NCBI GenBank assembly: GCA_963695345.1
Contig: OY968769.1
Location: forward strand, 2,446,441 to 2,510,440
Direction: 5' to 3'
Source: an uncultured Methanomassiliicoccales archaeon
GTDB lineage: Archaea > Thermoplasmatota > Thermoplasmata > Methanomassiliicoccales > UBA472
Length of the DNA stretch: 64,000 nt
Below, piece after piece: positions 6,610-38,530 of this stretch. Below the pieces are notes generated by a model. The model was not told the origin of the DNA. It searched no databases and saw nothing but the letters and a program-made list of their open reading frames with translations. A program made the position numbers and the translations under genes. Position 1 is the stretch's first letter. Every line of letters starts with the position of its first letter.

Positions 6610-7257
6610 CTAAAACTTGTGCCAGGCTCCTATCTCGGCCTTCATGTCCTTGGAACCGAAGAGCGCGCTGCCCGCGGCCAGGGCGGAAGCACCCGCCCGG
6701 ACACACCTTGAACCGGTGTCGGCATTGATGCCCCCGTCGATCTCAATATCGAATCCCAGGCCGTTCTGGTCCGCATAGTCCCGGGCCATGGTTATCTTGG
6801 GGACCACCTCTTCCATGAAGGATTGTCCCCCGAAACCGGGATGGACGGTCATGATCAGCAGGAGATCGATCTCATTCAGATAGGGCAGCACGGCCTCGAA
6901 GGGCGTCTCCGGGTTGATGGAGATGCCCGCCCGCTTTCCCATCGAACGGATCTTGGACAGAGTCCCGGAGATATGGTCCGAGGCTTCGACATGGATGGTG
7001 ATGAAATCGGCACCGGACCGGGCGAACGCCTCAATGTAGCGTTCCGGTTGGACTATCATCAGGTGCACATCGAAAGGGAGCTTGGTATGCGGCCGGATCT
7101 TCCTGATGACCTCTGGCCCTATGGTGATGTTGGGGACGAACATACCGTCCATCACGTCGACATGGACCCAGTCCGCACCCGCCTCCTCGATCCTCCGCAC
7201 CTCGTTCGCCAGCGCCCCGAAGTCTGCCGAAAGAATGGATGGAGCTACCTTGATCAT
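6610..7257 (-). CDS. rpe: ribulose-phosphate 3-epimerase
   Basis: Intact 215-aa ORF: MIKVAPSILSADFGAL, HVDVMDGMFVPNITIGP, DVHLMI, MTVHPGFGGQSF, DGGIN. Confidence 0.9.
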   Translation of the reverse strand: MIKVAPSILSADFGALANEVRRIEEAGADWVHVDVMDGMFVPNITIGPEVIRKIRPHTKLPFDVHLMIVQPERYIEAFARSGADFITIHVEASDHISGTLSKIRSMGKRAGISINPETPFEAVLPYLNEIDLLLIMTVHPGFGGQSFMEEVVPKITMARDYADQNGLGFDIEIDGGINADTGSRCVRAGASALAAGSALFGSKDMKAEIGAWHKF

Positions 7258-7274
7258 CTTGACACGCCTCCTAC

Positions 7275-7694
7275 CTATGGGACCACCATGACCGGCACTT
7301 TCGAGAACTGGACCACCCGGGAGGAGACGCTTCCCATGAGGAAGCGCGCCAAACCGCTGATGCCCCTGGAACCTACGATCACCAGGTCATAATCCTTCTC
7401 TGAGAGGTCCAGGATGGCCTCTGCCGGATTGCCCAGCATTACCTTCTGGAGCGTCCTCAGGCCGGCCTCCTCACAGACCATCCTTGCCTGATAGAGCTTC
7501 ATCTCGCCCTTGGCCTGTTCCGCCTCCTCCGTCGTCGGCATCCCGGTGTAGTAGGCCGACTCGGTCGGTTGGAGCACATGAAGGAGGGTGATCTCGGAAT
7601 GGAACGGGGCGGCGATATCTGCCGCCATCCGTGCCGCGCGGAGCGAGTTCTCAGAACCGTCCACTCCGACCAATATCCGGTTGAGCACAGTCAT
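7275..7694 (-). CDS. universal stress protein (UspA family)
   Basis: 139 aa. ILVGVDGSENSLRAARMAADIA...DLVIVGSRGISGLARFLMGSVSSRVVQFSKVPVMVV. Confidence 0.85.
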   Translation of the reverse strand: MTVLNRILVGVDGSENSLRAARMAADIAAPFHSEITLLHVLQPTESAYYTGMPTTEEAEQAKGEMKLYQARMVCEEAGLRTLQKVMLGNPAEAILDLSEKDYDLVIVGSRGISGLARFLMGSVSSRVVQFSKVPVMVVP

Positions 7695-7794
7695 TCGATC
7701 GTCCGGTGATGGAACCAGACGAACATAATGTTGTCGATGTTCGGGCGATACTCAGGGCAAAACGTTAAAATGAAGGTGAGCGAATGCCAGACTC

Positions 7795-8007
7795 ATGGCA
7801 GAGACCCACCATGCGGTAGAGAAAGAGGAACCCTGTGACGTCGCAGGATGCGGAAAACCGGCCGAGAGGTCAATTTCGCAGAACAGCGCCCAAGAGGCAG
7901 GGCTCGCTGTCGATGAGGACCTGAAACGGGTCCATCTGTGCAAGGAGCACTACAAGTCCTACAAGAAAGCGACGAAGACTGAGAGAAAGATCGGCTCCAT
8001 ACGTTAG
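7795..8007 (+). CDS. small zinc-finger protein (hypothetical)
   Basis: 70 aa with CDVAGCGK...HLCKEHYKSYKK, a Cys/His-containing metal-binding-like motif. Confidence 0.4.
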   Translation: MAETHHAVEKEEPCDVAGCGKPAERSISQNSAQEAGLAVDEDLKRVHLCKEHYKSYKKATKTERKIGSIR

Positions 8008-11917: not shown

Positions 11918-13210
11918 GTGACCATCATGGCATCCAAGCCGATCAAGAAGACCACAGCAAAGAAGCCAGCGGCAAAGAAGATCCAGAAGAACATCATTAT
12001 CGAGAGCTTGAACCTGACTCCCATCGAGAAGCAGAGGGTAGAGCTCGTTGAGCGCAAGGGCCTGGGACACCCGGACACGATCTCCGACGGATTGGCAGAA
12101 TCGGTCAGCCGAGCGCTCTGCAAGATGTACCTGGACCGGTACGGGGAGGTCCTCCACCACAACACCGACCAGAACGAGGTAGTGGGCGGACAGAGCGCCC
12201 CCAAGTTCGGCGGCGGAAGAATGCTGGAGCCCATATATATCGTCCTGATCGGCAGGGCCATAACTCAGGTGGACGGCGAAAGGCTCCCGTATGCCACGAC
12301 CGCCATCGGAGCGGCCAAGGATTACCTGAAGAACTTCCCGCACCTGGACGTCAACAACGATGTCATTGTCGACTGCAAGATCGGGAAGGGCAGCATCGAC
12401 CTGATCAAGAACTTCGAATCCCTCGCGGACAAGTGCAAGATCAACGGCAACCAGAACAGCTGCATGCTGGCCAACGATACGTCCTTCGGATGCAGCTTCG
12501 CGCCGCTCTCCCAGACCGAGACGGTTACGCTCGAGGTCGAGAGGTACATCAACGGCGCGATGAAGAAGAAACTGAAGGAGACCGGTCAGGACGTCAAGGT
12601 CATGGCCGCCAGGAACAACGACAAGATCACCCTGACCATCGCCTGCGCCATGGTGGACAAGTTCGTCCCGGACGCCGACCACTACGTCAATGTCGTGCAG
12701 GAGATGACCGAGCGGGTGTCCGACTACGCCTCGAAGTTCACCGAGTACGATGTCAAGGTCGACATCAACCACGCCGACGACTACAAGAACGGCAACTACT
12801 ACCTGACCGTGACCGGCCTCAGCGCGGAGAACGGGGACGACGGCTCTGTGGGCCGCGGAAACCGGGTCAACGGCCTGATCACCCCCTACCGCTCCATGAG
12901 CATGGAGGCGTCCGCCGGAAAGAACCCGATCACCCACGTCGGCAAGATGTACAACATCCTCGCCAACTGGATCGCCCGGGACATAGTCAAGGAGGCCGGC
13001 GGGGACGTTCAGGAAGCCCAGGTCAGGATCCTGTCCCAGATCGGAAGGCCGATCAACGACCCGCAGACCTGCAGCGTCCAGCTTATCCTGGGAGATGGTG
13101 TTAACTTCGAAAAGACCCAGAAAAAGGCCCTCGCGGTGGCCGACAACTGGTTCGAGAACATCAACAAGGTCACGGAGAAAGTTGTAAAAGGCGAAGTAAC
13201 GGTATTCTAA
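11918..13210 (+). CDS. metK: archaeal-type S-adenosylmethionine synthetase
   Basis: Intact 430-aa ORF. VERKGLGHPDTISDGLAESVSRALCKMYL and GDDGSVGRGNRVNGLITPYRSMSMEA are characteristic of the archaeal MAT family. Confidence 0.9.
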   Translation: MTIMASKPIKKTTAKKPAAKKIQKNIIIESLNLTPIEKQRVELVERKGLGHPDTISDGLAESVSRALCKMYLDRYGEVLHHNTDQNEVVGGQSAPKFGGGRMLEPIYIVLIGRAITQVDGERLPYATTAIGAAKDYLKNFPHLDVNNDVIVDCKIGKGSIDLIKNFESLADKCKINGNQNSCMLANDTSFGCSFAPLSQTETVTLEVERYINGAMKKKLKETGQDVKVMAARNNDKITLTIACAMVDKFVPDADHYVNVVQEMTERVSDYASKFTEYDVKVDINHADDYKNGNYYLTVTGLSAENGDDGSVGRGNRVNGLITPYRSMSMEASAGKNPITHVGKMYNILANWIARDIVKEAGGDVQEAQVRILSQIGRPINDPQTCSVQLILGDGVNFEKTQKKALAVADNWFENINKVTEKVVKGEVTVF

Positions 13211-13213
13211 GCG

Positions 13214-13798
13214 ATGAAACTCGTTGATTTGCCCAGATATGGTCCGGTGCACCGGTTCGCCGATTACCACGTCTTCAAAACCCTTTCCATCCTATCCGAT
13301 GGGAAGCGCAAGGGGCGCAAGCAACTTGCAGACATGGTCAATGTGGGCGAGGGCAGCATGCGGACCATCATCGAATACCTGCGCGACCGGGAGATGATCG
13401 ATGTCAAGCAGACCGGCGTCAAGATCTCCAGCAAAGGACACGAGTTCCTCGGCAACCTTCCCATCTACATGGAGAGGGTCGAGCCTACCGACAGTACGCT
13501 GGGTGAGAGGAGCGCGGCGGTGCTGGTCAAGGGCCAAAGCATGAAGATCAAGTTAGGGGTCGAACAGAGGGACAGCGCCATCAAGGCCGGGGCGGAGGGG
13601 GCGACCACCATCATCGTCTCCGGTGACCACCTGATCGTCCCTCCGGATTATGATCTGGATGTCGAACGGCCGGAGTTCACGCAGACGCTGAGGAGACTTC
13701 TGGCACTGAGCGAGGGCGATGTGATAATCATCGGCACCGGGAAGACCTACGATAGGGCGGAGGACGGTGCCCTGGCGGCCGCCTTCGAACTGATCTGA
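13214..13798 (+). CDS. conserved archaeal protein with N-terminal winged-HTH-like region (putative regulator)
   Basis: Intact 194-aa ORF directly after metK. Family assignment from the sequence alone is uncertain. Confidence 0.5.
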   Translation: MKLVDLPRYGPVHRFADYHVFKTLSILSDGKRKGRKQLADMVNVGEGSMRTIIEYLRDREMIDVKQTGVKISSKGHEFLGNLPIYMERVEPTDSTLGERSAAVLVKGQSMKIKLGVEQRDSAIKAGAEGATTIIVSGDHLIVPPDYDLDVERPEFTQTLRRLLALSEGDVIIIGTGKTYDRAEDGALAAAFELI

Positions 13799-24950: not shown

Positions 24951-26299
24951 GAGATATTCGTGCATCGCCTTGGCAGCACGCTTCCCTGCCCCCATGGCAC
25001 TGATGACGGTGGCAGCACCGGTGGCCACGTCACCGCCGGCGAACACGCCCTTCAGGTTGGTCCGTCCCTCTGCATCGACGATGATGGTGCCGTTTCGCGG
25101 ATTGGTCACCAGCCCCTCGGTGGTGCGCTGGATGATGGGGTTCGGCGTCTGGCCGATGGCGACGATGACGGTATCGGCCGGGATCTCGAAATCCGAACAG
25201 ACAATGGGCTTGACACCCTGCCTGCCCCTGTTCGTCCGGTTCTGTCAGCTCCATGCAGGTGCATCTCATGGACTTGACCCAGCCCTTCTCGTCACCGTAG
25301 AACTCGATCGGGGCGCTGAGGAACTTGCACATCAACCCTTCCTCCTCGGCGTTCTCGATCTCCTCCCTCCTGGCTGGCAGCTCGTTCCGCGAACGCCGGT
25401 AGTTCAGGCAGACCGTCGCCCCTAGCCTCATGGATATGCGGGCGCAGTCCATGGCCACGTTCCCTCCGCCGATGACGACCACGTGCTTGCCGATGCGGAT
25501 CGGGGTGTCCTTTTCCGGGAAGTCGTAGGCCTTCATCAGGTTGACCCGGATGAGGAACTCGTTGGCCGAGTAGATGCCGCCCAGGTTCTCACCGGGGCAT
25601 CCGGTCCACTGCGGGAGGCCGGCCCCGCTGCCGATGAATATCGCATCGTAACCGTTCTCCAACAGTTCCGGGATGGTGTGTATCCTCCCGATGAGATTGC
25701 CCAGTCGCAGGTCCACCCCCAGCTTCTGCACGTACTCGATCTCCTTCTGGACGATCTCCTTGGGCAGACGGAACTCCGGGATGCCATAGCTGAGCACACC
25801 GCCGGCCACATGCAGCGCCTCGAACAACGTCACCTCATGACCTAGTCTTGCCAGGTCGGATGCTGCCGTCAATCCCGCCGGGCCGGCACCGATGACCGCC
25901 ACCTTCTTTCCGGTTGGAGGCACCTTCTCCGGGATCTGCACTCCATGCTCCCTCTCCCAGTCGGCCAGGAACCTCTCGAGGCGTCCGATGTTGACCGGAT
26001 CGCCCTTCTTGCCCTTAATGCACTTCATCTGGCACTGCTCCTCCTGCGGGCAGACGCGTCCGCAGACGGCGGGAAGGGCGTTCTTTGACTTTATGATCGC
26101 AATGCCTTCGGCGTACTTTCCCTCAAGGATGCAGTCGATGAACTCCGGGATAGGCACGTCCACGGGGCAGCCTTTCCGGCATTGGGGGTTCTTGCACTTG
26201 CAGGCACCGGGCCGCCTCTTTCAGGGCCATCTCCTCGGTGTAGCCAAGAGCGACCTCGCTGAAGTTCTTGACCCGCTCGTCAGGCTCCTGCCTCGGCAT
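24948..26299 (-). CDS. nfnB: glutamate-synthase-small-subunit-like NADPH oxidoreductase (SudA/NfnB homolog; frameshifts near 26190 and 25215)
   Basis: MPRQEPDERVKNFSEVALGYTEEMALKEAARCLQ..., then VAVIGAGPAGLTAASDLARLGHEVTLFEA, GGNVAMDCAR, and C-terminus VFAGGDVATGAATVISAMGAGKRAAKAMHEYL. Confidence 0.8.
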
Positions 26300-26351
26300 C
26301 GGCACGTCCTCGTCCGTCGTAGCCCGGGCGCGTCCTCTCTTCTTCTCAGGC

Positions 26352-27195
26352 TCAGTACCGTTCACACTTGCAGCCTCCGTTCGTTTCCCAAAGCATGGAA
26401 CTCAACCTCTCTTCCGGGAGCATGGTGCGCTGGCGTTTGATGAGCTCGTCGAAGTTGGTCTCGTGCCCGTCGAACTCGGGGCCATCCACGCAACCGAACA
26501 TCATCTTGTCGCCCACGGTCACACGGCAGACACCGCACATGCCCATGCCATCGATCATGATCGGGGTCAAGGTCACAATGGTCGGGATGCCGTAGGGGCT
26601 GGGTCATCTCGCTCACCTCTTTCATCATCACCACCGGTCCCATGACCACGCACCGGTCGAATCTCTCCGTCTGGAGGAGATCGTTCAGGAAAGCCAATCC
26701 CATTTTCCCCGCAGTCCCATCGTCCGAGGCGATGTGGACCTGATCGCTGTTTGCCATGGCCTCCTCCTTCATGAAAAGCAGATCGCTGCTCCTGCAGCCA
26801 AGGACCGTAGTCACATGGTTTCCTGCCGCCTTCAAGGCCTTGGCCTGAAGCAGCAACGGGGCGATCATTATGCTTCCGCCCACGCACAGCACCTTCCCGA
26901 AAGTTCCTGATCTCGGAAGGATTGCCCAACGGTCCGGTGACGTTGAACAGGCAGTCGCCCTGGTTGAACGTGCCCAGCTCCTTGGTGGTCTTGCCGACCT
27001 CATGGAAGGCGAATGAAACCGTTCCTTTCTCCGCGTCGTAATCACAGATGGTAAGGGGTACTCTCTCCCCTCCCGTTTTCGCTATGACGATCAGGAATTG
27101 CCCCGGCTGAGCTTTGGCGGCGATCTCCGGGGCCTCGACCTCGAACAGGGTCATCTTGTAGCTGAGCGCCTTTTGGACAATATCTTGTATGTCAT
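26352..27195 (-). CDS. nfnA: sulfide-dehydrogenase beta / NfnA-like FAD-[2Fe-2S] subunit (frameshifts, one in an AAAA homopolymer at about 27170)
   Basis: MTYKILSK then (frameshift) ALSYKMTLFEVEAPEIAAKAQPGQFLIVI...GKVLCVGGSIMIAPLL...GMGMCGVCRV...DGPEFDGHE. SD-like GGGAGG precedes the ATGATG start. Confidence 0.8.
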
Positions 27196-28829: not shown

Positions 28830-30169
<1,340 letters not shown>

Positions 30170-30518: not shown

Positions 30519-31052
30519 ATGCCAGACATCAGGCAGAAGGTTGAGGAAGACCGGGGGCTGATCAAGAAGATCCAGCTGATGGTCCCAGGATATCGCGGAT
30601 ACAGGCTCAGGGACGACCTTAGGGACTCGGACAAGATCCTGAGGGTCGAGCTCGGGAAGCGACTGGCGCTTCAGCGCAAGGAACTGGAGGAGTTCCGGCA
30701 GACGATGGTCACGAACAATCCCATGTCGAAGAACCTTCAGCCGATCGGCGGCATCATCAACCAGTACAAGAAGGTCGAGGGCCTGATGGCCCATGGCGAA
30801 TCGGGATACTCGGGCATCTCGGCGGACATCCGCATCGGCGTACCGGAGCTGAACAGCTCTACGAGTACGATGCCGGAATGGTCGAGAGCATCAATTTCAT
30901 CGAGCAATCCATCGGATTGCTGCGGAGCGGCCGTGGACGACAAGGACGATTTCAAGGTCGCCGAGCATCTCAAGAACGTCAAGATGCGCATCACCGGTTT
31001 CGAGGAGAAGTTCGCCAAGCGCATCTCCACCATCCAGGGAATAGGAGTGTGA
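30519..31052 (+). CDS. hypothetical charged, helix-rich cytosolic protein (first gene of the SPFH/ZnR/LemA/TPM cluster)
   Basis: 177-aa ORF rich in predicted helices (LIKKIQLM...RVELGKRLALQRKELEEFRQTM; KMRITGFEEKFAKRI). A stretch around 30850-30930 reads more protein-like in the +1 frame (QLYEYDAGMVESINFIEQSIGLLRS), suggesting a compensating frameshift pair. Confidence 0.45.
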   Translation: MPDIRQKVEEDRGLIKKIQLMVPGYRGYRLRDDLRDSDKILRVELGKRLALQRKELEEFRQTMVTNNPMSKNLQPIGGIINQYKKVEGLMAHGESGYSGISADIRIGVPELNSSTSTMPEWSRASISSSNPSDCCGAAVDDKDDFKVAEHLKNVKMRITGFEEKFAKRISTIQGIGV

Positions 31053-31058
31053 TTCTGA

Positions 31059-32182
31059 ATGAGCTTAATCGGCGCGGACACCTTCAAGTGGGAGGACCAG
31101 GACAAGCGTCTCAACATCATGTTCCGCATGAACCGGAACATCAAGTATGGCGACAACGTCGTGGTCCGGGAGGACGAGATCGCCGCGTTCTACCGGGACG
31201 GAAAGGTCCTGACCTACATGGACCGGCCGGACCGGTACGCGCTCACCGACCTGAACGCCCCCATCGTGGGCAAGCTGGTCAAGGCCTTGTCCGGTGCGCA
31301 GCAGCAGGCCGAGGTCATCTACCTGCAGAAACGCGCCTTCGACGGCAAGTTCGGCTCCAAGCAGCCGTTCCAGTTCCGGGACAAGGAGTTCGGGATGGTC
31401 AACCTCCGGGTGTTCGGCGAGTTCCGTTACAAGGTCTCGAACCCGGAGAACTTCGTGAACCAGTTCGTCGGTACGCTCAACTTCGCCACCAGCGCCGAGA
31501 TCGAGGAGCGCATCAAGGAGCAGATGGTGCTCCTGATCTACTCCGCCATCGGCGACATGAAGAACCAGGGCATGGGAGTGGCGGATCTGGCCAGCAGCCT
31601 GACGAACATCGAGCAGGTGGTCCTGTCCAAGACCAACGACCATTTCGACCTCTACGGCGTCGGCATCGACAAGATATCTGGACTGTACATCTCCCTGCCG
31701 GATGAGGTGCAGAAGGCGGTGGACACCCGGGCATCCATGCAGATAACCGGCACCAACTATGCCCAGTACCAGAGCGGACAGGCCATGCGGGAGGCGGCCT
31801 CGAACCCCGCGGGAGGGGCGGCCGCGGCCGGTGTCGGCGTCGGCGCCGGTATCGGCATGGGCTACACCATGGTCGATTCGATGAGGAGCGCACAGCAGCA
31901 GCCCGCACCGGGAGCGGCAGCCGCCGGCACCGCAGCAGGTCCTGCTCTGCCCCAAGTGCGGGGCAACGAACAACGTCGGTGCGAAGTTCTGCAACTCATG
32001 CGGAACGAAGCTCACGGTCGAGACGGTCCCCTGCCCCAAGTGCGGCAGCAATGTGAACATCGATGCCAAGTTCTGCCCCGAGTGCGGCAACGCGATGAAG
32101 GCAACCAAGAAGTGCCCCAAGTGCGGCACCGAATCCGCCGCGAACGGCAAAGTTCTGCCCCGAGTGCGGAACCACCTTCTGA
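31059..32182 (+). CDS. SPFH/Band-7 family protein (YdjI-like) with Gly/Ala-rich linker and three C-terminal zinc ribbons (2 frameshifts)
   Basis: FRDKEFGMVNLRVFGEFRYKVSNPENF and ISLPDEVQKAVDTRASMQITGTNYAQYQSGQAMREAA match the YdjI-type SPFH family. Then (GA)n, then three CPKCG...AKFC(N/P)xCG ribbons ending TTF*. Confidence 0.75.
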
Positions 32183-32192
32183 GGGCGTACTG

Positions 32193-32942
32193 ATGGCCAC
32201 CATCAAATGCCCCAAGTGCGCGGCACCGGTGGAGTTCGACGCCAAGGACAAGTTCGTCCAGTGCACCTACTGCGGTTCGTTGATCTATATCGACCGGAGC
32301 GGGGCCGGGTTCTACTACGCGGTCCCGTTCATGATCGACCAGAACAACGCCATCGGCACGTTCCGGCGATGGGCCAGCGGACCCACCAAGGCCAAGGACC
32401 TGGACAAGTCGGCGCAGGTGGTGGGAGCGAAGAAGGAGTATTTCCCGGTGTATCTGTTCAAGCGTGACGTCGACGGCGTCGAGCAGGTGCTGGTGGAACC
32501 GGCCGGATCGACGACGCTGCCCGGGCTGCACAGCCTCAAGGTCCCGGCAGGCGACATGAAGGTGTTCGACAGCACCTTCGACACTGGAGGGGCCGAGATG
32601 ATCAAGCCGGACATCGAGATGACCTCCTACCTGGGCACACTGCCCGGGAAGCCGAAGGAGCAGGCCCTGGTCTACTTCCCCATATGGACGATAGACTATG
32701 TCTTCGAGCAGAAACGGTACAGCGTGGTGGTCAGTGCCACCTCCGGCGAGGTGTTCGCCGCCGAGTTCCCCACCCGGAGCTCCGCCTCGTACCTGCTGGT
32801 GGCCATCGTCGGTTTCGTGGCCTTCTTGGCCGAGGGATTCCTGGCCTCTAGGACCGGCATGTTCGGATTGGCCGTGATCATGATGCTGGTGACAGTTCTG
32901 GCGGTGTTCGGGATCGCTTATTACGTGGCAAAGAGGATGTGA
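32193..32942 (+). CDS. zinc-ribbon protein with beta-rich middle domain and 2 C-terminal TM helices (paralog 1)
   Basis: MATIKCPKCAAPVEF...CTYCGSLIY, then EYFPVYLF...VYFPIWTIDYVF, then two TM helices (LLVAIVGFVAFLAEGFLA; LAVIMMLVTVLAVFGIAYYV). Intact ORF. Confidence 0.65.
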   Translation: MATIKCPKCAAPVEFDAKDKFVQCTYCGSLIYIDRSGAGFYYAVPFMIDQNNAIGTFRRWASGPTKAKDLDKSAQVVGAKKEYFPVYLFKRDVDGVEQVLVEPAGSTTLPGLHSLKVPAGDMKVFDSTFDTGGAEMIKPDIEMTSYLGTLPGKPKEQALVYFPIWTIDYVFEQKRYSVVVSATSGEVFAAEFPTRSSASYLLVAIVGFVAFLAEGFLASRTGMFGLAVIMMLVTVLAVFGIAYYVAKRM

Positions 32943-32944
32943 AC

Positions 32945-33959
32945 ATGGGCATCGAGGTAGGTCTAAACTGTCCCGCGTGCGGCGGTGCCATCAAGGTCGT
33001 CGAAGGTGAGAACACCGTCAACTGCCAGTATTGCGGTTCGATGCTCTTCGTCGAAGGGGACGCGGGCGTCACCACGGTCTCCTTCAAGAACATGATCACC
33101 CGGGAGGCCGCGGTGACGGCCTCGGCCGACTGGTGGAGGAAGGGATTCAAGGCCCGGGACCTGAAGAAGGATCGGACAGGTGACCGAATGCTATCCCATC
33201 TACATCCCGTTCTGGAGCACCACGACACGGGTCGCCGGATGGATATGCGGATACGAGGAAAGGACCCACAGCGACGGCAAGCGCACCTACACCGAACGGA
33301 TCCCGAAGGAGGAGATGGTGCTGCGCGATTACCGATTCTCGGAGATAGCCTGCGACCCGGGGGACCTGGGCATCAGGAAGCTGAGGAACATGGACGGGGA
33401 AACGACCCTGACCGATTTCCAGATGATCCCGACCTTCGAGTCGACCACCAGCAGGGACGATGCGACCGACGCATGCCAAGGAGAGCGCGATGGCGAACGC
33501 CCGGTCCGATGCCCACGTGCCTCACATCACGTTCGAGAACGTGCATGTCTTCCCGAAGTCGATGTCCATGATCTACTATCCGGTCTGGGTGGTCCGCTAC
33601 ACCTACCGCGACAGGATGTACCTGAACACGGTGGACGGCGTCACCGGAACGGTCCTTTCCGGGAAGGGCTCCCGGGCGATCCGCTGTTCCAGAGCCTGGC
33701 GGTGACCGCCGGGACGTCCATCGGGGGCTTGCTGGCGGCAGCCGGAGTCATCGTCGCCAGCTCTTCGGCGGAGGTGGCGGTCGGATGCTTCATCGTGGGG
33801 TTGATCATCATGATCGGGACCTATCTGTTCTTCCGGCACGGTTCGGAGATAACCGAGGGGGAATTCTCCGACCGGGGGTTCAGGCTCGGCGACCTCAAGG
33901 GCGTGGCCTCGCAGCTTTCGCAGGGACGCGTCGGCGGCAACAACTGGGGTGATATCTGA
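32945..33959 (+). CDS. zinc-ribbon protein with beta-rich middle domain and 2 C-terminal TM helices (paralog 2; 3 frameshifts)
   Basis: NCPACGGAIK...CQYCGSMLF, then YPIYIPFWST...IYYPVWVVRYTY, then TM helices (LAVTAGTSIGGLLAAAGVIV; VAVGCFIVGLIIMIGTYLFF). Pieces lie in three frames. Confidence 0.55.
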
Positions 33960-34547
33960 TGCAGGTGATACAGGTCAAATGCCCCAAGTGCGGGAACCCG
34001 ATCTATTCGAAACAGAAGGACACCGTGTTCTATCTGCATCAACTGCAACACGATGCACATCCGGAACGGCGGGATCCAGGTCTTGGACGTCGAGATCGGG
34101 GACTTCAACAAGAGCGCCTCCCAGGACCGGGTGTACGTCCCGTTCTGGCGCATGTACTCCACGGTCGTGGTCAACAACTCGCGTTCCGAGGGAGGAGGAT
34201 TCCATAAGCTGGCAAGTGGTTCAGCGGGGACAGCAATTCCGGAAATATCTTCATCTGGGTCCCGGCATCGGAAATGGACATCGACCGGTTCAAGGGCATG
34301 GCCATGGACTTCACGCTCAACCCGCCGCCGTACAGCACCAGGATGGATTTCGGCCTGGTGCCGAGGCTGCCCACGGTCATGAAGCGAGGCGGAGGCGATG
34401 GAGATGGCCGATTTCGTGGTGGTGACGATCGAGGCGGAGAAGCCGGGCGTCCTGCAATCCCTGGACTATTCCCTCACCGTGCACGATGCCAAGCTGATCT
34501 ATCTGCCGTTCGTGAGCACGGAGCGCGGACTGATACCGGCGTTCTGA
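33959..34547 (+). CDS. zinc-ribbon protein with beta-rich domain, no TM (paralog 3; frameshifts)
   Basis: MQVIQVKCPKCGNPIY...CINCNTMH, then VYVPFWRMY...KLIYLPFVSTERGLIPAF*. The start overlaps the previous stop (TGATG). Confidence 0.5.
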
Positions 34548-34633: not shown

Positions 34634-35224
34634 ATGGCAGAGGGGTCTGGCATCAACAAAAGGACCATTTACAAGATCGTCGCGGTCGGACGTGATCGTC
34701 ATAATCCTGCTGTGGACGGTCCTGGCGTACAATGGAATCGTGGGCAAGGACCAGAACGTCAACTCGAAGCTGTCGGAGATAAAGAACCGATACACCGTGA
34801 AGCTCAATGTGCTGCCGGCGATGCTCTCGACCCTGAACAACTACACGATCTACGAGTCCGGTCTGCTCACGAACATCACTGCGCTGAGGAGCCAATGGAT
34901 GGCGGAATCAAGCAGCAGGGGCCTCCGCGACCAACCTCTCGAACACCAGCGAACAGCTGGACACGACAGCTCAGCCAGATAGTTCTGACCTGGGAGAACT
35001 ACCCGATCTCAAGGCGGACTCCCTTGTTCAGCCAGTACATGGGTGAGATAGTCAACCAGGAGGAACAGCTGTCATATTCCAGGACGAACTACAATACGGC
35101 GGTGCGGGACTACAACACGGCCATCAAGTCCTTCCCCAACAACCTGCTGGCCGGATCGTTCGGTTTCGGCGACAAGATCGTATTGGGGCACAGGGATCGA
35201 CGACGGAACGGCGCTCAACCTGTG
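34634..35224 (+). CDS. lemA: LemA family protein (3 frameshifts)
   Basis: N-terminal TM, then YNGIVGKDQNVNSKLSEIKNRYTVKLNVLPAMLSTL...WENYPISRRTPLFSQYMGEIVNQEEQLSYSRTNYNTAVRDYNTAIKSFPNNLLAGSFGFGDK, which tracks the LemA consensus closely. Confidence 0.8.
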
Positions 35225-35281
35225 ACGGGTCGGGATGAACCGCTCCACGAAGATCGCCGCCATCGTCGTGTATCGTGGTAA

Positions 35282-35990
35282 TGGCGATTATCTTCTCGAT
35301 AGGGGCGTACATCATCCTTCAGCCTTCGAACAATGATGATACCAGTTGGGTCCCCGAGCTCGACTTCCTACGTCACGGATGATACCTACGTTCTCTCGGA
35401 CACGGACTACTACGACCTTCTTGACTTCTGTGCCGCGGTCGAGCACGAACAATACCTGCCAGATAGCGGTTTTGATCGTCAACGGCACGAACTACAATGG
35501 CGTCCACGTCGGGGTCAATGACCTGGCCGTCAAGGTCTTCGAAAAGAACGGGATCGGCCAGAAGGGCAAGGACAATGGCGTTCTCTTCGTCCTGTCGACA
35601 GCCGACGAGAGCTGGCGGGTGGTCACCGGAAAGGGCGTGGAAGGTATCCTCAGCGGCGCCAAACTGACGGAACTCCAGAACGCCTACCTTGTACCATACC
35701 TCGACACTCCGGGCAATTATTCCACTGGTATCACGCTGTTCGTCTACTCGATCGGACTGGAGCTGACCGATCACTATATCAATACCGGTCCGGCACCCAG
35801 CCCCTACCCGATCGACTTCATCCCCCTGAACGGCTTCGAGCTGGCGATCGCCATTGCCGTTTTCATCGTACTGATGATAATCACCCGGGGAAGGGCCATA
35901 CTTTGGATCGGTCTGCTTTTCGGTAGGGGCGGAGGCGGCGGCTTCGGCGGCGGCAGTACCGGAGGCGGCGGGTCCAAGGGACGTTTCTAG
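35282..35990 (+). CDS. TPM-domain protein (YgcG/YdjH/UPF0603-like) with TM and Gly-rich tail (2 frameshifts)
   Basis: N-terminal anchor MAIIFSIGAYIIL. TPM core QIAVLIVNGT...GVLFVLSTADESWRVVTGKGVEGILSGAKLTELQNAYLVPYL. Then TM helix and GGGGGFGGGSTGGGGSKGRF*. Confidence 0.75.
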
Positions 35991-36238: not shown

Positions 36239-37023
36239 ATGCATTACCTGCTCTTCAATGACCTGCACCATATCCTGATCTATTTCGTCGGGGATATCGC
36301 ATTTGTATTCATCGAAGTGCTCCTGGTAACATTGATAATTCATTCTCTCTTGGATAGAAGGGAGAAGGCGAATATTATCGGCAAGATGAGCACGGTGATC
36401 GGGGCGTTCTTCAGCGAACTTGGCAGGCCCTTGATCGTCCTACTCATGAAGCATGGAGTGCGCGAGGAGGCACTGGGTGTCGACCTACGGTTTAACAACA
36501 ATTGGACCGATAGCGATTATAGAAATGGCGGTCAAAGCATTGTCAGAAAAAGGAAGTATCACTCAAGCTTGATGCGACCGACATGGCGGAGATCAAGAAG
36601 CTGCTGACCGAGAAACGGGATTTCCTATTGGGCATGATGGAGAACCCGAACCTGCTGGAGCATGAGAAGTTCACGGAAATGCTGCTGGCCCTGTTCCACG
36701 TCCAAGAGGAGCTCATGTTCCGGGGCGACTCGAACGCTCTGCCGAAATCGGACATTGCCCATCTGAACAAGGACGTCAACCGTGCTTTTGGATTGATCAT
36801 CCGGGAATGGATAATGCACATGAGACACCTTCAGAACAACTATTCCTACTTGTTCTCGTTGGCCACAAGGACGAACCCCTTCGACCCTCGAGGCGGAGGC
36901 AATAGTGAAGGAATGAGGGTAATCACTTCATGGAGTAGAATGGAAAGACGGATCGCCCTCCAATCGAATGTTACGATTCAGATGAAGCTCAGGCGAAGGT
37001 TAATGAGAGCATTCGCGCCTTAG
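36239..37023 (+). CDS. hypothetical membrane-anchored protein (probably one gene split by a frameshift near 36570)
   Basis: N-terminal TM (ILIYFVGDIAFVFIEVLLVTLIIHSLL). The second ORF (MAEIKKLLTEKRDFLLGMMENPNLLEHEKFTEMLLALFHVQEEL...) continues in another frame. No recognisable family. Confidence 0.3.
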
Positions 37024-37042
37024 TCTGGAAAGGGGATCGTAC

Positions 37043-37855
37043 ATGGGAAGGCTCTCAAGAGGATGGCAGCTCACCAAGTTGAGTTTCAACGTAATCAGAA
37101 AGGACAAGGAGATCTTGCTGTTTCCGATCATCTCAGGAATAGCGCTCATCCTGATGGCGGCATCGTTCTTCGGAACATACTACTTCGCTTTCGGATTCGA
37201 CAATATCAACACCTACCTGCTGGCGGCATTCTTCATCGCCTTTTACTTCGTGTCTGCCTTCATTGTCGTCTTTTTCAACGTAGCTCTAGTCTCATGCGCG
37301 ATGCTCCGCCTGAACGGCGGGGATCCCACCTTCTCGTACGGGATCAAGATGGCGACCTCACGCCTGAAGTATATCCTGGAATGGGCACTTCTTTCGGCAA
37401 CGGTCGGACTGGTGCTGCAGGCGATCAGCTCCAGATCAGGGGTCATCGGAAAGGTCATCATCGGGATGATCGGCTTCGCCTGGTCGGTGGCTACTTACTT
37501 CGTCGTGCCGATCATCGCGTTCGAGCAGATGGGGCCGTTCAAGGCGATCAAGCGCAGCGCCTCCATCCTGAAAGGCTCGTGGGGAGAGGCGTTGATATCG
37601 AACCTCGGCATAGGACTAATCTTCTTCTTGCTGGCGCTGGTAGGGCTGATTCCCCTGATCATCGGGTTCGTCATCGGGGTTTCGTTCGCCATCATCGCCG
37701 GTATCGTCATTGCGGTGGTCTACTGGCTTTGCCTGGCGGTTCTGGCATCGGCGGCCAGCGGGGTATTGTTGACCGCTCTCTACCGTTACGGGACCACCGG
37801 GAAGCTGTCGGAGTACTATTCCGAGCAGGTCCTGCAGAATCCCTGGAGACAGTAG
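37043..37855 (+). CDS. multi-pass membrane protein (DUF4013/GDPD-membrane-domain-like)
   Basis: Intact 270 aa with 6 or more TM helices. No catalytic motifs. Confidence 0.5.
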   Translation: MGRLSRGWQLTKLSFNVIRKDKEILLFPIISGIALILMAASFFGTYYFAFGFDNINTYLLAAFFIAFYFVSAFIVVFFNVALVSCAMLRLNGGDPTFSYGIKMATSRLKYILEWALLSATVGLVLQAISSRSGVIGKVIIGMIGFAWSVATYFVVPIIAFEQMGPFKAIKRSASILKGSWGEALISNLGIGLIFFLLALVGLIPLIIGFVIGVSFAIIAGIVIAVVYWLCLAVLASAASGVLLTALYRYGTTGKLSEYYSEQVLQNPWRQ

Positions 37856-37954
37856 TCCCATGACGAGCGAGGGGACGGCGTCCCCCTTTACTGTTCTTTG
37901 ACGATCTAGTCGGCAGGTCCGCCTAGCGACAATTAGTTATCCGACAGTGCGTAA

Positions 37955-38530
37955 TTGCGTCCTATGACCTCGAACACGTGCCTGTCCTGCGGCAGGGAAA
38001 TGGCCAAGGACATGATGTTCTGTCCCTACTGTGGTTCCAAGATACAGGCGGAAGGCTCTCTGGCCGATGCCGGCGAACAGGAGCGGATTGAAGGGGTTAT
38101 CCCTTTGGCCAAATGGAGGGGGGAAACGGACCAAGGAACATTGTCGACTCTCGTCATCACGTCGACCAGTGTCATTATCGCCAAGGTCAAGGAGACAGAT
38201 TCGGACAAGATAAGAAAGGCCACCGGTTCGCTGTTCATGGGAGGGGCGAATCTGGACCCAGAGCGCCACAGAAAGAGCCTGGGTGCCTATTCCAGTCGAT
38301 ACCTGACGATGGATCCGGGAACGATTCTGGCTGAATCGTCAAGCAACGAATCGATCAGAATAACCGATGTGAAGGCGGTCCGGATTTCTTCCGAGGACGA
38401 TTCCGAAGGCGATCAGTATTACATACTGGCAATTGAAACGGATCGAGGGATAAGGACGGTCCAGATCCCGGCAGACAGGGATTCCAGGGATCTGATCATT
38501 TCGACCTTCGGCCCTAAGGTACATTGGTGA
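37955..38530 (+). CDS. zinc-ribbon + PH/GRAM-like beta-domain protein (hypothetical)
   Basis: CLSCGREMAKDMMFCPYCGS at the N-terminus, followed by an about 150-aa mostly beta domain. Intact ORF. Confidence 0.5.
   Translation: MRPMTSNTCLSCGREMAKDMMFCPYCGSKIQAEGSLADAGEQERIEGVIPLAKWRGETDQGTLSTLVITSTSVIIAKVKETDSDKIRKATGSLFMGGANLDPERHRKSLGAYSSRYLTMDPGTILAESSSNESIRITDVKAVRISSEDDSEGDQYYILAIETDRGIRTVQIPADRDSRDLIISTFGPKVHW

Follow-up and report, generated by a model that had tools for sequence, protein, structure and literature searches.

In Bacillus subtilis, the membrane partners of a soluble SPFH protein are encoded beside it in the pspA-ydjGHI (= pspA-samGHI) operon. When ydjG or ydjH is deleted, YdjI and PspA are no longer recruited to the membrane and no longer form foci (PMC8581546), and SamG-SamH reportedly recruit SamI (bioRxiv 10.64898/2026.02.06.704340). 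YdjG is described as having two zinc ribbons and a single membrane helix, YdjH is a TPM protein, and the coupling of YdjG has been described as a Firmicutes feature, with the family placed among YpeB-related, NTF2-like proteins (PMC11237479). Soluble YdjI-type SPFH proteins depend on a membrane partner, and the sole studied case is this one B. subtilis operon. A 64-kb window of DNA (64,000 nucleotides of contig OY968769.1, assembly GCA_963695345.1, to which all coordinates refer) from an uncultured Methanomassiliicoccales archaeon contains a compact gene row on the + strand, between 30.5 and 36 kb, that encodes g177, SPFH, p1, p2, p3, LemA and TPM (labels used throughout). The three consecutive zinc-ribbon genes p1, p2 and p3 (the trio) probably specify a single membrane-bound complex rather than being a recent local expansion, because they recur in the same order in both archaea and bacteria and here lie beside an SPFH gene. 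The trio is a three-gene form of the YdjG family that is ancient and widely conserved, and its function is proposed from homology and gene context only. The features of the trio, with protein lengths in amino acids (aa), are as follows.

32193..32942, + strand: p1, 249 aa, one intact frame, with a zinc ribbon, an alpha/beta domain and a two-helix membrane hairpin
32208..32276, + strand: C4 zinc ribbon of p1 (CPKC...CTYCG)
32439..32453, + strand: motif strand 1 of p1 (YFPVY), within a beta-hairpin of residues 75-93
32673..32687, + strand: motif strand 2 of p1 (YFPIW), within a beta-hairpin of residues 153-171
32784..32936, + strand: C-terminal transmembrane helical hairpin of p1, residues 198-221 and 224-248 helical in the model
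32945..33959, + strand: p2, 336 aa once corrected, with an alternative GTG start at 32939
32969..33037, + strand: C4 zinc ribbon of p2 (CPACG...CQYCG)
33201..33215, + strand: motif strand 1 of p2 (YIPFW), aligning with the YFPVY strand of p1 and the YIPFW strand of YdjG
33574..33588, + strand: motif strand 2 of p2 (YYPVW), aligning with the YFPIW strand of p1 and the LLPVW strand of YdjG
33696..33866, + strand: transmembrane hairpin of p2 (from hydropathy) and juxtamembrane tail motif FFRHGSEITEGEF, the latter at 33828-33866
33959..34547, + strand: p3, 195 aa once corrected, with a zinc ribbon and a truncated alpha/beta domain and no membrane segment
33980..34049, + strand: C4 zinc ribbon of p3 (CPKCG...CINC), interrupted by a 1-bp insertion in the window
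34134..34148, + strand: motif strand 1 of p3 (YVPFW)
34500..34514, + strand: motif strand 2 of p3 (YLPFV)

The initial annotation had described three paralogs that each begin with a C4 ribbon and carry two Y/F-x-P-x-W-type strands, the first two ending in a pair of transmembrane helices, the third having none, and consecutive genes overlapping at start and stop; every one of these descriptions holds. The ribbons could be mapped in all three proteins, each of which contains two copies, and no more, of the pattern [YF].P[FIVL][WYFV] (p1 YFPVY and YFPIW; p2 YIPFW and YYPVW; p3 YVPFW and YLPFV). The count of this pattern in the four neighbouring proteins is zero, the mean in shuffled sequences is 0.21, and 0 of 5000 shuffles attained six. 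In the family alignments, the motif prolines rank among the most conserved residues other than cysteine. Across 74 diverse family members, all four ribbon cysteines of p1 are invariant, as is P163 of strand 2, and P85 of strand 1 is conserved in at least 90%; in 52 p3 orthologs, P61 and W63 of strand 1 are invariant, and Y181, P183 and F184 of strand 2 reach at least 90% in the p3 ortholog alignment. Hydropathy supports the two terminal helices of p1 and p2 and their absence from p3, with peaks in p1 at residues 201-219 and 223-241, and the p1 model agrees. p2 repeats the architecture of p1 with an insert of roughly 90 aa, a two-helix hairpin and a predicted cytoplasmic tail. The genes are tightly packed: the p1 stop codon (32940-32942) either overlaps the GTG at 32939 or ends 2 nt before the ATG at 32945, and a single base, 33959, is common to the p2 stop and the p3 ATG.

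The paralogy of p1, p2 and p3 persists after frameshift correction (described below), both in a BLASTP comparison of p1 and p2 and in deep profiles that link p2 and p3 to p1. By BLASTP, p1 and p2 match over their full length at an E-value (E) of 3e-12 and 19% identity, and profiles built from all three alignments, enlarged with archaeal and bacterial orthologs, align them over 241 columns (HHalign, E 2e-41). The same deep profiles align p3 with p1 over 136 columns (probability 97.6%, E 4e-12), with the ribbon and both motif strands in register: YVPFW is paired with YFPVY, "VPA" with "EPA" and LIYLPF with LVYFPI. The depth of the alignments was needed, since shallow ones matched p3 to p1 in the ribbon alone. 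AlphaFold2 models of p1 and p3 (predicted local distance difference test, pLDDT, of 93.6 and 84.7, respectively) contain equivalent elements, the ribbon and then two long beta-hairpins with a single strand and a variable insert between them; beyond the second hairpin p1 has two more strands and the membrane helical hairpin, and p3 ends. On the profile alignment and the equivalent elements of the two predicted structures, p3 is therefore assigned to the p1/p2 family as a shortened, soluble member.

The relation of the trio to Bacillus goes beyond the analogy with YdjG that had been tentatively suggested from the sequence for all three proteins: p1 and p2 are true homologs, and p3 is linked to YdjG only indirectly, through p1. 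Using the ydjG locus of Bacillus stercoris, recovered by a published primer sequence, as the reference, the p1 profile matches Bacillus YdjG at 39.9 bits in three colinear stretches (hmmsearch). In profile-profile comparison with the YdjG group, p1 aligns over 218 columns (HHalign, E 1e-23) and p2 over 264 columns (E 1e-27), in both cases beyond the ribbon. p3 reaches a probability of 85% against YdjG directly, and its YVPFW is not placed on the YIPFW strand of YdjG. Thus, the profile matches, together with matching neighbours (SPFH for YdjI, TPM for YdjH), identify p1 and p2 as homologs of YdjG/SamG and not merely analogs. The family is large. A protein search returned 495 homologs of p1 and 59 of p3, and at E<=1e-3 the p1 profile matched 1274 cluster representatives among 1.84 billion proteins. 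These matches comprise three groups: p1-like (about 250 aa), p2-like (320-375 aa), and a group of 360-470 aa in which two ribbons are combined with one membrane helix. Representatives of the double-ribbon group score about 130 bits against YdjG and E about 1e-12 against the p1 profile, and their architecture is the one described for B. subtilis YdjG (PMC11237479).

No Pfam, NCBIfam or PADLOC model matched p1, p2 or p3 beyond the ribbon, and there was no defence-system match; the ribbon matches themselves are sub-threshold. These matches could be taken to mean that the three proteins are separate membrane-tethered or soluble nucleic-acid binders or regulators of the TFIIB/RpoP type, which is very unlikely. 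The sub-threshold hits are to TFIIB, RpoP and S27e ribbons, automatic names for these proteins include "RPC12/RpoP" and "LSD1 zinc finger", and the ribbon type found in YdjG is known to bind DNA (PMC9239133). The likeness is to a four-cysteine ribbon of about 30 residues, however, and the matches stay below the curated family cut-offs while the rest of each trio protein is unrelated to these families: against the TFIIB ribbon PF08271 (Pfam cut-off 29 bits), p1 scores 18.2 and p2 10.3, p3 gives no match at E<=1, and Bacillus YdjG itself passes at 47.1 bits. The conservation of the family resides instead in the alpha/beta domain and the membrane anchor, and strict co-inheritance in fixed order argues for joint action of the three proteins.

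A lineage-specific expansion of a single component, as had been proposed at first, is not borne out, since the ordered trio occurs in archaea and in bacteria and each paralog is closest to its cross-lineage counterparts. The order p1-p2-p3 is invariant in every sufficiently long locus examined (about 90), with junctions that overlap or lie 2-10 nt apart. Among Thermoplasmata, loci L006, L094 and L095 keep the order SPFH-p1-p2-p3, usually with g177 in front and with LemA and TPM absent. A further metagenome-assembled genome, from another lineage (L093), has g177-SPFH-p1-p2-p3. A p1-p2-p3 row that adjoins bacterial EF-P includes a distant relative of p1, whose cluster bears Anaerolineae and Anaerolineaceae names. 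A scan of metagenomes for loci of this type gave 80 (L012-L091), which have p2 and p3 on the same strand after p1 wherever the contig reaches; they were collected with a narrower alignment (A5) and sample one bacterial clade, not the whole family. On a 7.6-Mb bacterial contig, the trio is followed by yacP, dnaG and rpoD. Across lineages, bit scores are 109-144 for p1-p1 vs 38-67 for p1-p2, 134-223 for p2-p2, and 37-57 for p3-p3 vs 18-31 for p3 against p1 or p2. Because each paralog outscores its own neighbours with its cross-lineage counterparts, and because the trio order recurs, these comparisons indicate an ancient triplication that either predates the split of these lineages or was followed by movement of the whole cassette between them. 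Scans of viral contigs found no relatives; the cassette is thus not phage-borne. A divergently transcribed EF-P gene precedes the trio in 31 of the 80 Anaerolineae-type loci, where no other neighbour that hints at a function is conserved.

A zinc-ribbon SPFH gene of the Band_7_1 type stands directly upstream of the trio in the window, in its close, intact relative L001, in the Thermoplasmata loci L006, L094 and L095, and in the distant L093. The frame-corrected SPFH protein matches Pfam PF13421 (E 2e-34) and DZR (E 7e-23), aligns with Bacillus YdjI over 350 aa at 23% identity (BLASTP, E 3e-15), and shows no hydrophobic segment by hydropathy. By analogy with the Bacillus operon, the trio is rather likely to be a membrane-anchored heteromeric platform of ancient YdjG/SamG paralogs that works with the SPFH protein. 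The three proteins would be co-produced from their tightly packed or overlapping genes and would assemble as one heteromer on the cytoplasmic face of the membrane, anchored by the hairpins of p1 and p2. Their shared core consists of the C4 ribbon followed by an alpha/beta domain built around two proline-containing beta-hairpins, and the ribbon and alpha/beta domains are predicted to be cytoplasmic because their zinc is bound by cysteines and basic residues flank the hairpin. The complex of this archaeon would be coupled to the soluble SPFH protein encoded upstream, which has no membrane anchor of its own, and may tether or organise it at the membrane, a role that YdjG and YdjH play for YdjI in Bacillus. 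The cassette as a whole (g177, SPFH, the trio and, here, LemA and TPM) would then serve membrane maintenance or the handling of membrane stress without PspA. An FR-x-G-x-E motif that follows the second helix of p2 is also present in bacterial p2 orthologs and could be a docking site. The juxtamembrane form F/Y-R-x-G-x-E is common to archaeal and bacterial p2 (window 33828-33866; L007 1595-2692; L092 6818-7912; L093 2540-3598).

Several observations weigh against the platform. No SPFH, g177, LemA or TPM gene was found within 7 kb of the Anaerolineae-type trios or of the trio in L092, and these stand-alone trios imply that anchoring SPFH is neither the only nor the ancestral role and that the complex must do something else as well. 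In Bacillus, two-hybrid data suggest that YdjI contacts YdjH directly rather than YdjG (PMC8581546). The cassette has no PspA, g177 has no similarity to PspA by BLASTP or HHalign, and the uncorrected window carries frameshifts in p2 and p3.

The stand-alone loci can also be read the other way round: the trio would be a self-sufficient membrane sensor or signalling complex, and SPFH (and g177), where present, would restrain it as an accessory regulator and not be its cargo. For Bacillus, a preprint proposes that SamG-SamH is a membrane stress-sensor complex restrained by SamI, and argues that SamI restrains SamG-SamH signalling and that its loss leads to chronic stress signalling (bioRxiv 10.64898/2026.02.06.704340). 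Such a complex would fit the trio's occurrence in L092 and in about 80 Anaerolineae-type loci that lack an SPFH gene, as L092 does too, and the finding that each paralog forms its own orthologous group, conserved across domains. No kinase, DNA-binding or enzymatic output domain was detected in p1, p2 or p3, however, and the stand-alone trios have no conserved regulator beside them, given that a response-regulator-like gene (18 loci) and EF-P (31) recur in a manner that resembles plain synteny. A self-sufficient sensor is a serious alternative but appears unlikely, and it overlaps with the heteromeric platform more than it excludes it, so that the two are largely complementary.

The frameshifts bear on how the locus is read. 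In the window, only p1 is a single open frame, and the other cassette genes can be read only across changes of frame. The reference for correction was L001, a locus found by a protein search with p1 in a complete 2.55-Mb genome (GCA_942492955.1), where the row is intact (177, 373, 249, 336, 195, 195 and 251 aa) and aligns with the window at 84% nucleotide identity. Compared with L001, the window has 26 single-base indels in 5.5 kb (20 insertions and 6 deletions), which lie outside homopolymer runs and are present in every cassette gene but p1. For instance, p2 has 1-bp insertions near 33171, 33466, 33659 and 33671; in p3 the insertions lie near 34034 and 34387, and one base is deleted near 34210; the SPFH gene has 1-bp insertions near 31920 and 32146; and about 25 codons of g177 are garbled by the loss of a base near 30854 and the gain of one near 30929. 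Removal of the indels restores trio lengths of 249, 336 and 195 aa, the same as in L001. Because a relative at 84% identity is intact, and because other genes of the window, such as those for glutamate dehydrogenase (28830-30169) and glutamate synthase (25030-26440), are split likewise, the p2 and p3 frameshifts are most likely sequence errors from an unpolished or error-prone assembly and not gene decay. A decaying cassette in which p1 alone is functional and p2, p3, SPFH, g177, LemA and TPM are pseudogenes would account for the restriction of the indels to genes other than p1, yet it is highly improbable: the changes are mostly 1-bp insertions scattered over every gene, the housekeeping genes of the window included, and the corrected proteins are full length and highly similar to intact orthologs. 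The absence of indels from p1, where about 3.6 would be expected per 750 bp, has a probability of about 0.03 and is weak evidence.

Besides the trio, the cassette comprises the following genes.

30519..31052, + strand: g177, 177 aa, no predicted membrane segment; opens the cassette as context outside the paralog set
31059..32182, + strand: SPFH protein (Band_7_1), soluble, with C-terminal zinc ribbons; the counterpart of YdjI/SamI, stop codon at 32180-32182
34634..35228 (approximate), + strand: LemA-family membrane protein (Pfam PF04011, E 7e-16); context, present only in the closest relatives
35236..35990 (start approximate), + strand: TPM-domain membrane protein with a glycine-rich tail (Pfam PF04536, E 1e-20); context, YdjH/SamH-like architecture

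In the window and L001 alike, the TPM gene lies two genes downstream of the trio; its product has two hydrophobic segments, weak BLASTP similarity to Bacillus YdjH (E 0.004) and a similarly glycine-rich C-terminus. LemA has an intact 195-aa ortholog in L001 and is absent from L006, L094 and L095. g177 stands directly upstream of the SPFH gene in L001, L094, L095, L010 and L093. It has 244 homologs, all unnamed and lacking Pfam matches, from Methanomassiliicoccales and Methanocorpusculum, and its only database match is a full-length, sub-threshold one to NCBIfam NF047596 (the LIMLP_15305 family, from Leptospira; E 3.5e-8), for which no functional information was found in the literature. Members of the g177 family are about 175 aa long and share an invariant N-terminal P-G-x-x-G-Y-R (window 30519-31052, L010 8001-8525, L093 207-725). 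Neither BLASTP nor HHalign nor a profile search against PDB sequences supported a relationship of g177 to PspA/ESCRT-III, and no PspA_IM30 or Snf7 match was found in the cassette. The Methanocorpusculum-like contig L010 has no trio; it encodes two other proteins of the YdjG family without membrane helices (6912-7913 and 12611-13405), one of them with a double ribbon. One of the two lies directly upstream of g174-SPFH, and the SPFH gene is followed by one for a 150-aa multi-pass membrane protein.

At the 3' side of the cassette (36239-38530) are a frameshifted MJ1433-like gene, a gene for a DUF6159 membrane protein (37043-37855) and one for a zinc-ribbon protein (37955-38530), in an order that L001 also keeps. 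The whole window contains no Rfam family, and promoter- and terminator-like sites inside the cassette are no more frequent than expected by chance.

The literature found consists of the Bacillus YdjG/SamG work and comparative Psp surveys, and no description of the trio or of its archaeal SPFH linkage was found in it. With 1274 cluster representatives matching the p1 profile, the YdjG family is far larger than the Bacillus case suggests; in many lineages it occurs as a fixed three-gene set, and in archaea this set is tied to SPFH without PspA. As the core domain has no Pfam or NCBIfam model, these genes are at present annotated only as "zinc ribbon" or "hypothetical". The trio offers a concrete candidate for the way in which an archaeal SPFH scaffold is organised at the membrane, and it widens the framework in which the Bacillus SamGHI results are interpreted. 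More broadly, and only tentatively, it may be an ancient, previously undescribed three-subunit membrane complex of Thermoplasmata and of Bacteria such as Anaerolineae, of which Bacillus YdjG/SamG would be a simplified relative and which, in archaea, might form a PspA-independent membrane-integrity system together with SPFH and g177.

Small membrane proteins encoded next to a scaffold protein and working with it are familiar from NfeD/YbbJ with QmcA and from PspB/PspC with PspA. The trio has no sequence or domain similarity to these proteins in Pfam and NCBIfam scans, and the comparison is one of functional analogy only. No solved structure matches the core domain in searches that used the globular domain together with the rest of the protein, and these did not reproduce the published YpeB-related, NTF2-like description. 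Set against YpeB, PepSY and NTF2-like folds, the p1 model consists of a helix packed on antiparallel hairpins, and in our own reading of the model its end resembles the "VVDa-tG-V" strand of the PepSY type. The closest comparison is with YdjG/SamG. Shared with it are the N-terminal C4 ribbon, the homologous alpha/beta domain and the two proline strands (YIPFW and LLPVW in YdjG), a C-terminal membrane anchor in p1 and p2, which p3 lacks, and a location beside genes for partners of the YdjI and YdjH kind, the former a soluble zinc-ribbon SPFH protein of the Band_7_1 type and the latter a TPM membrane protein. Unlike the pspA-ydjGHI operon, the archaeal row has no PspA and carries a PspA-unrelated 177-aa protein in first position. 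Unlike YdjG, which has two ribbons and a single tail helix, each trio member has one ribbon, and p1 and p2 end in a two-helix hairpin. Finally, where Bacillus has one gene, this archaeal host has three specialised paralogs, one of them soluble.

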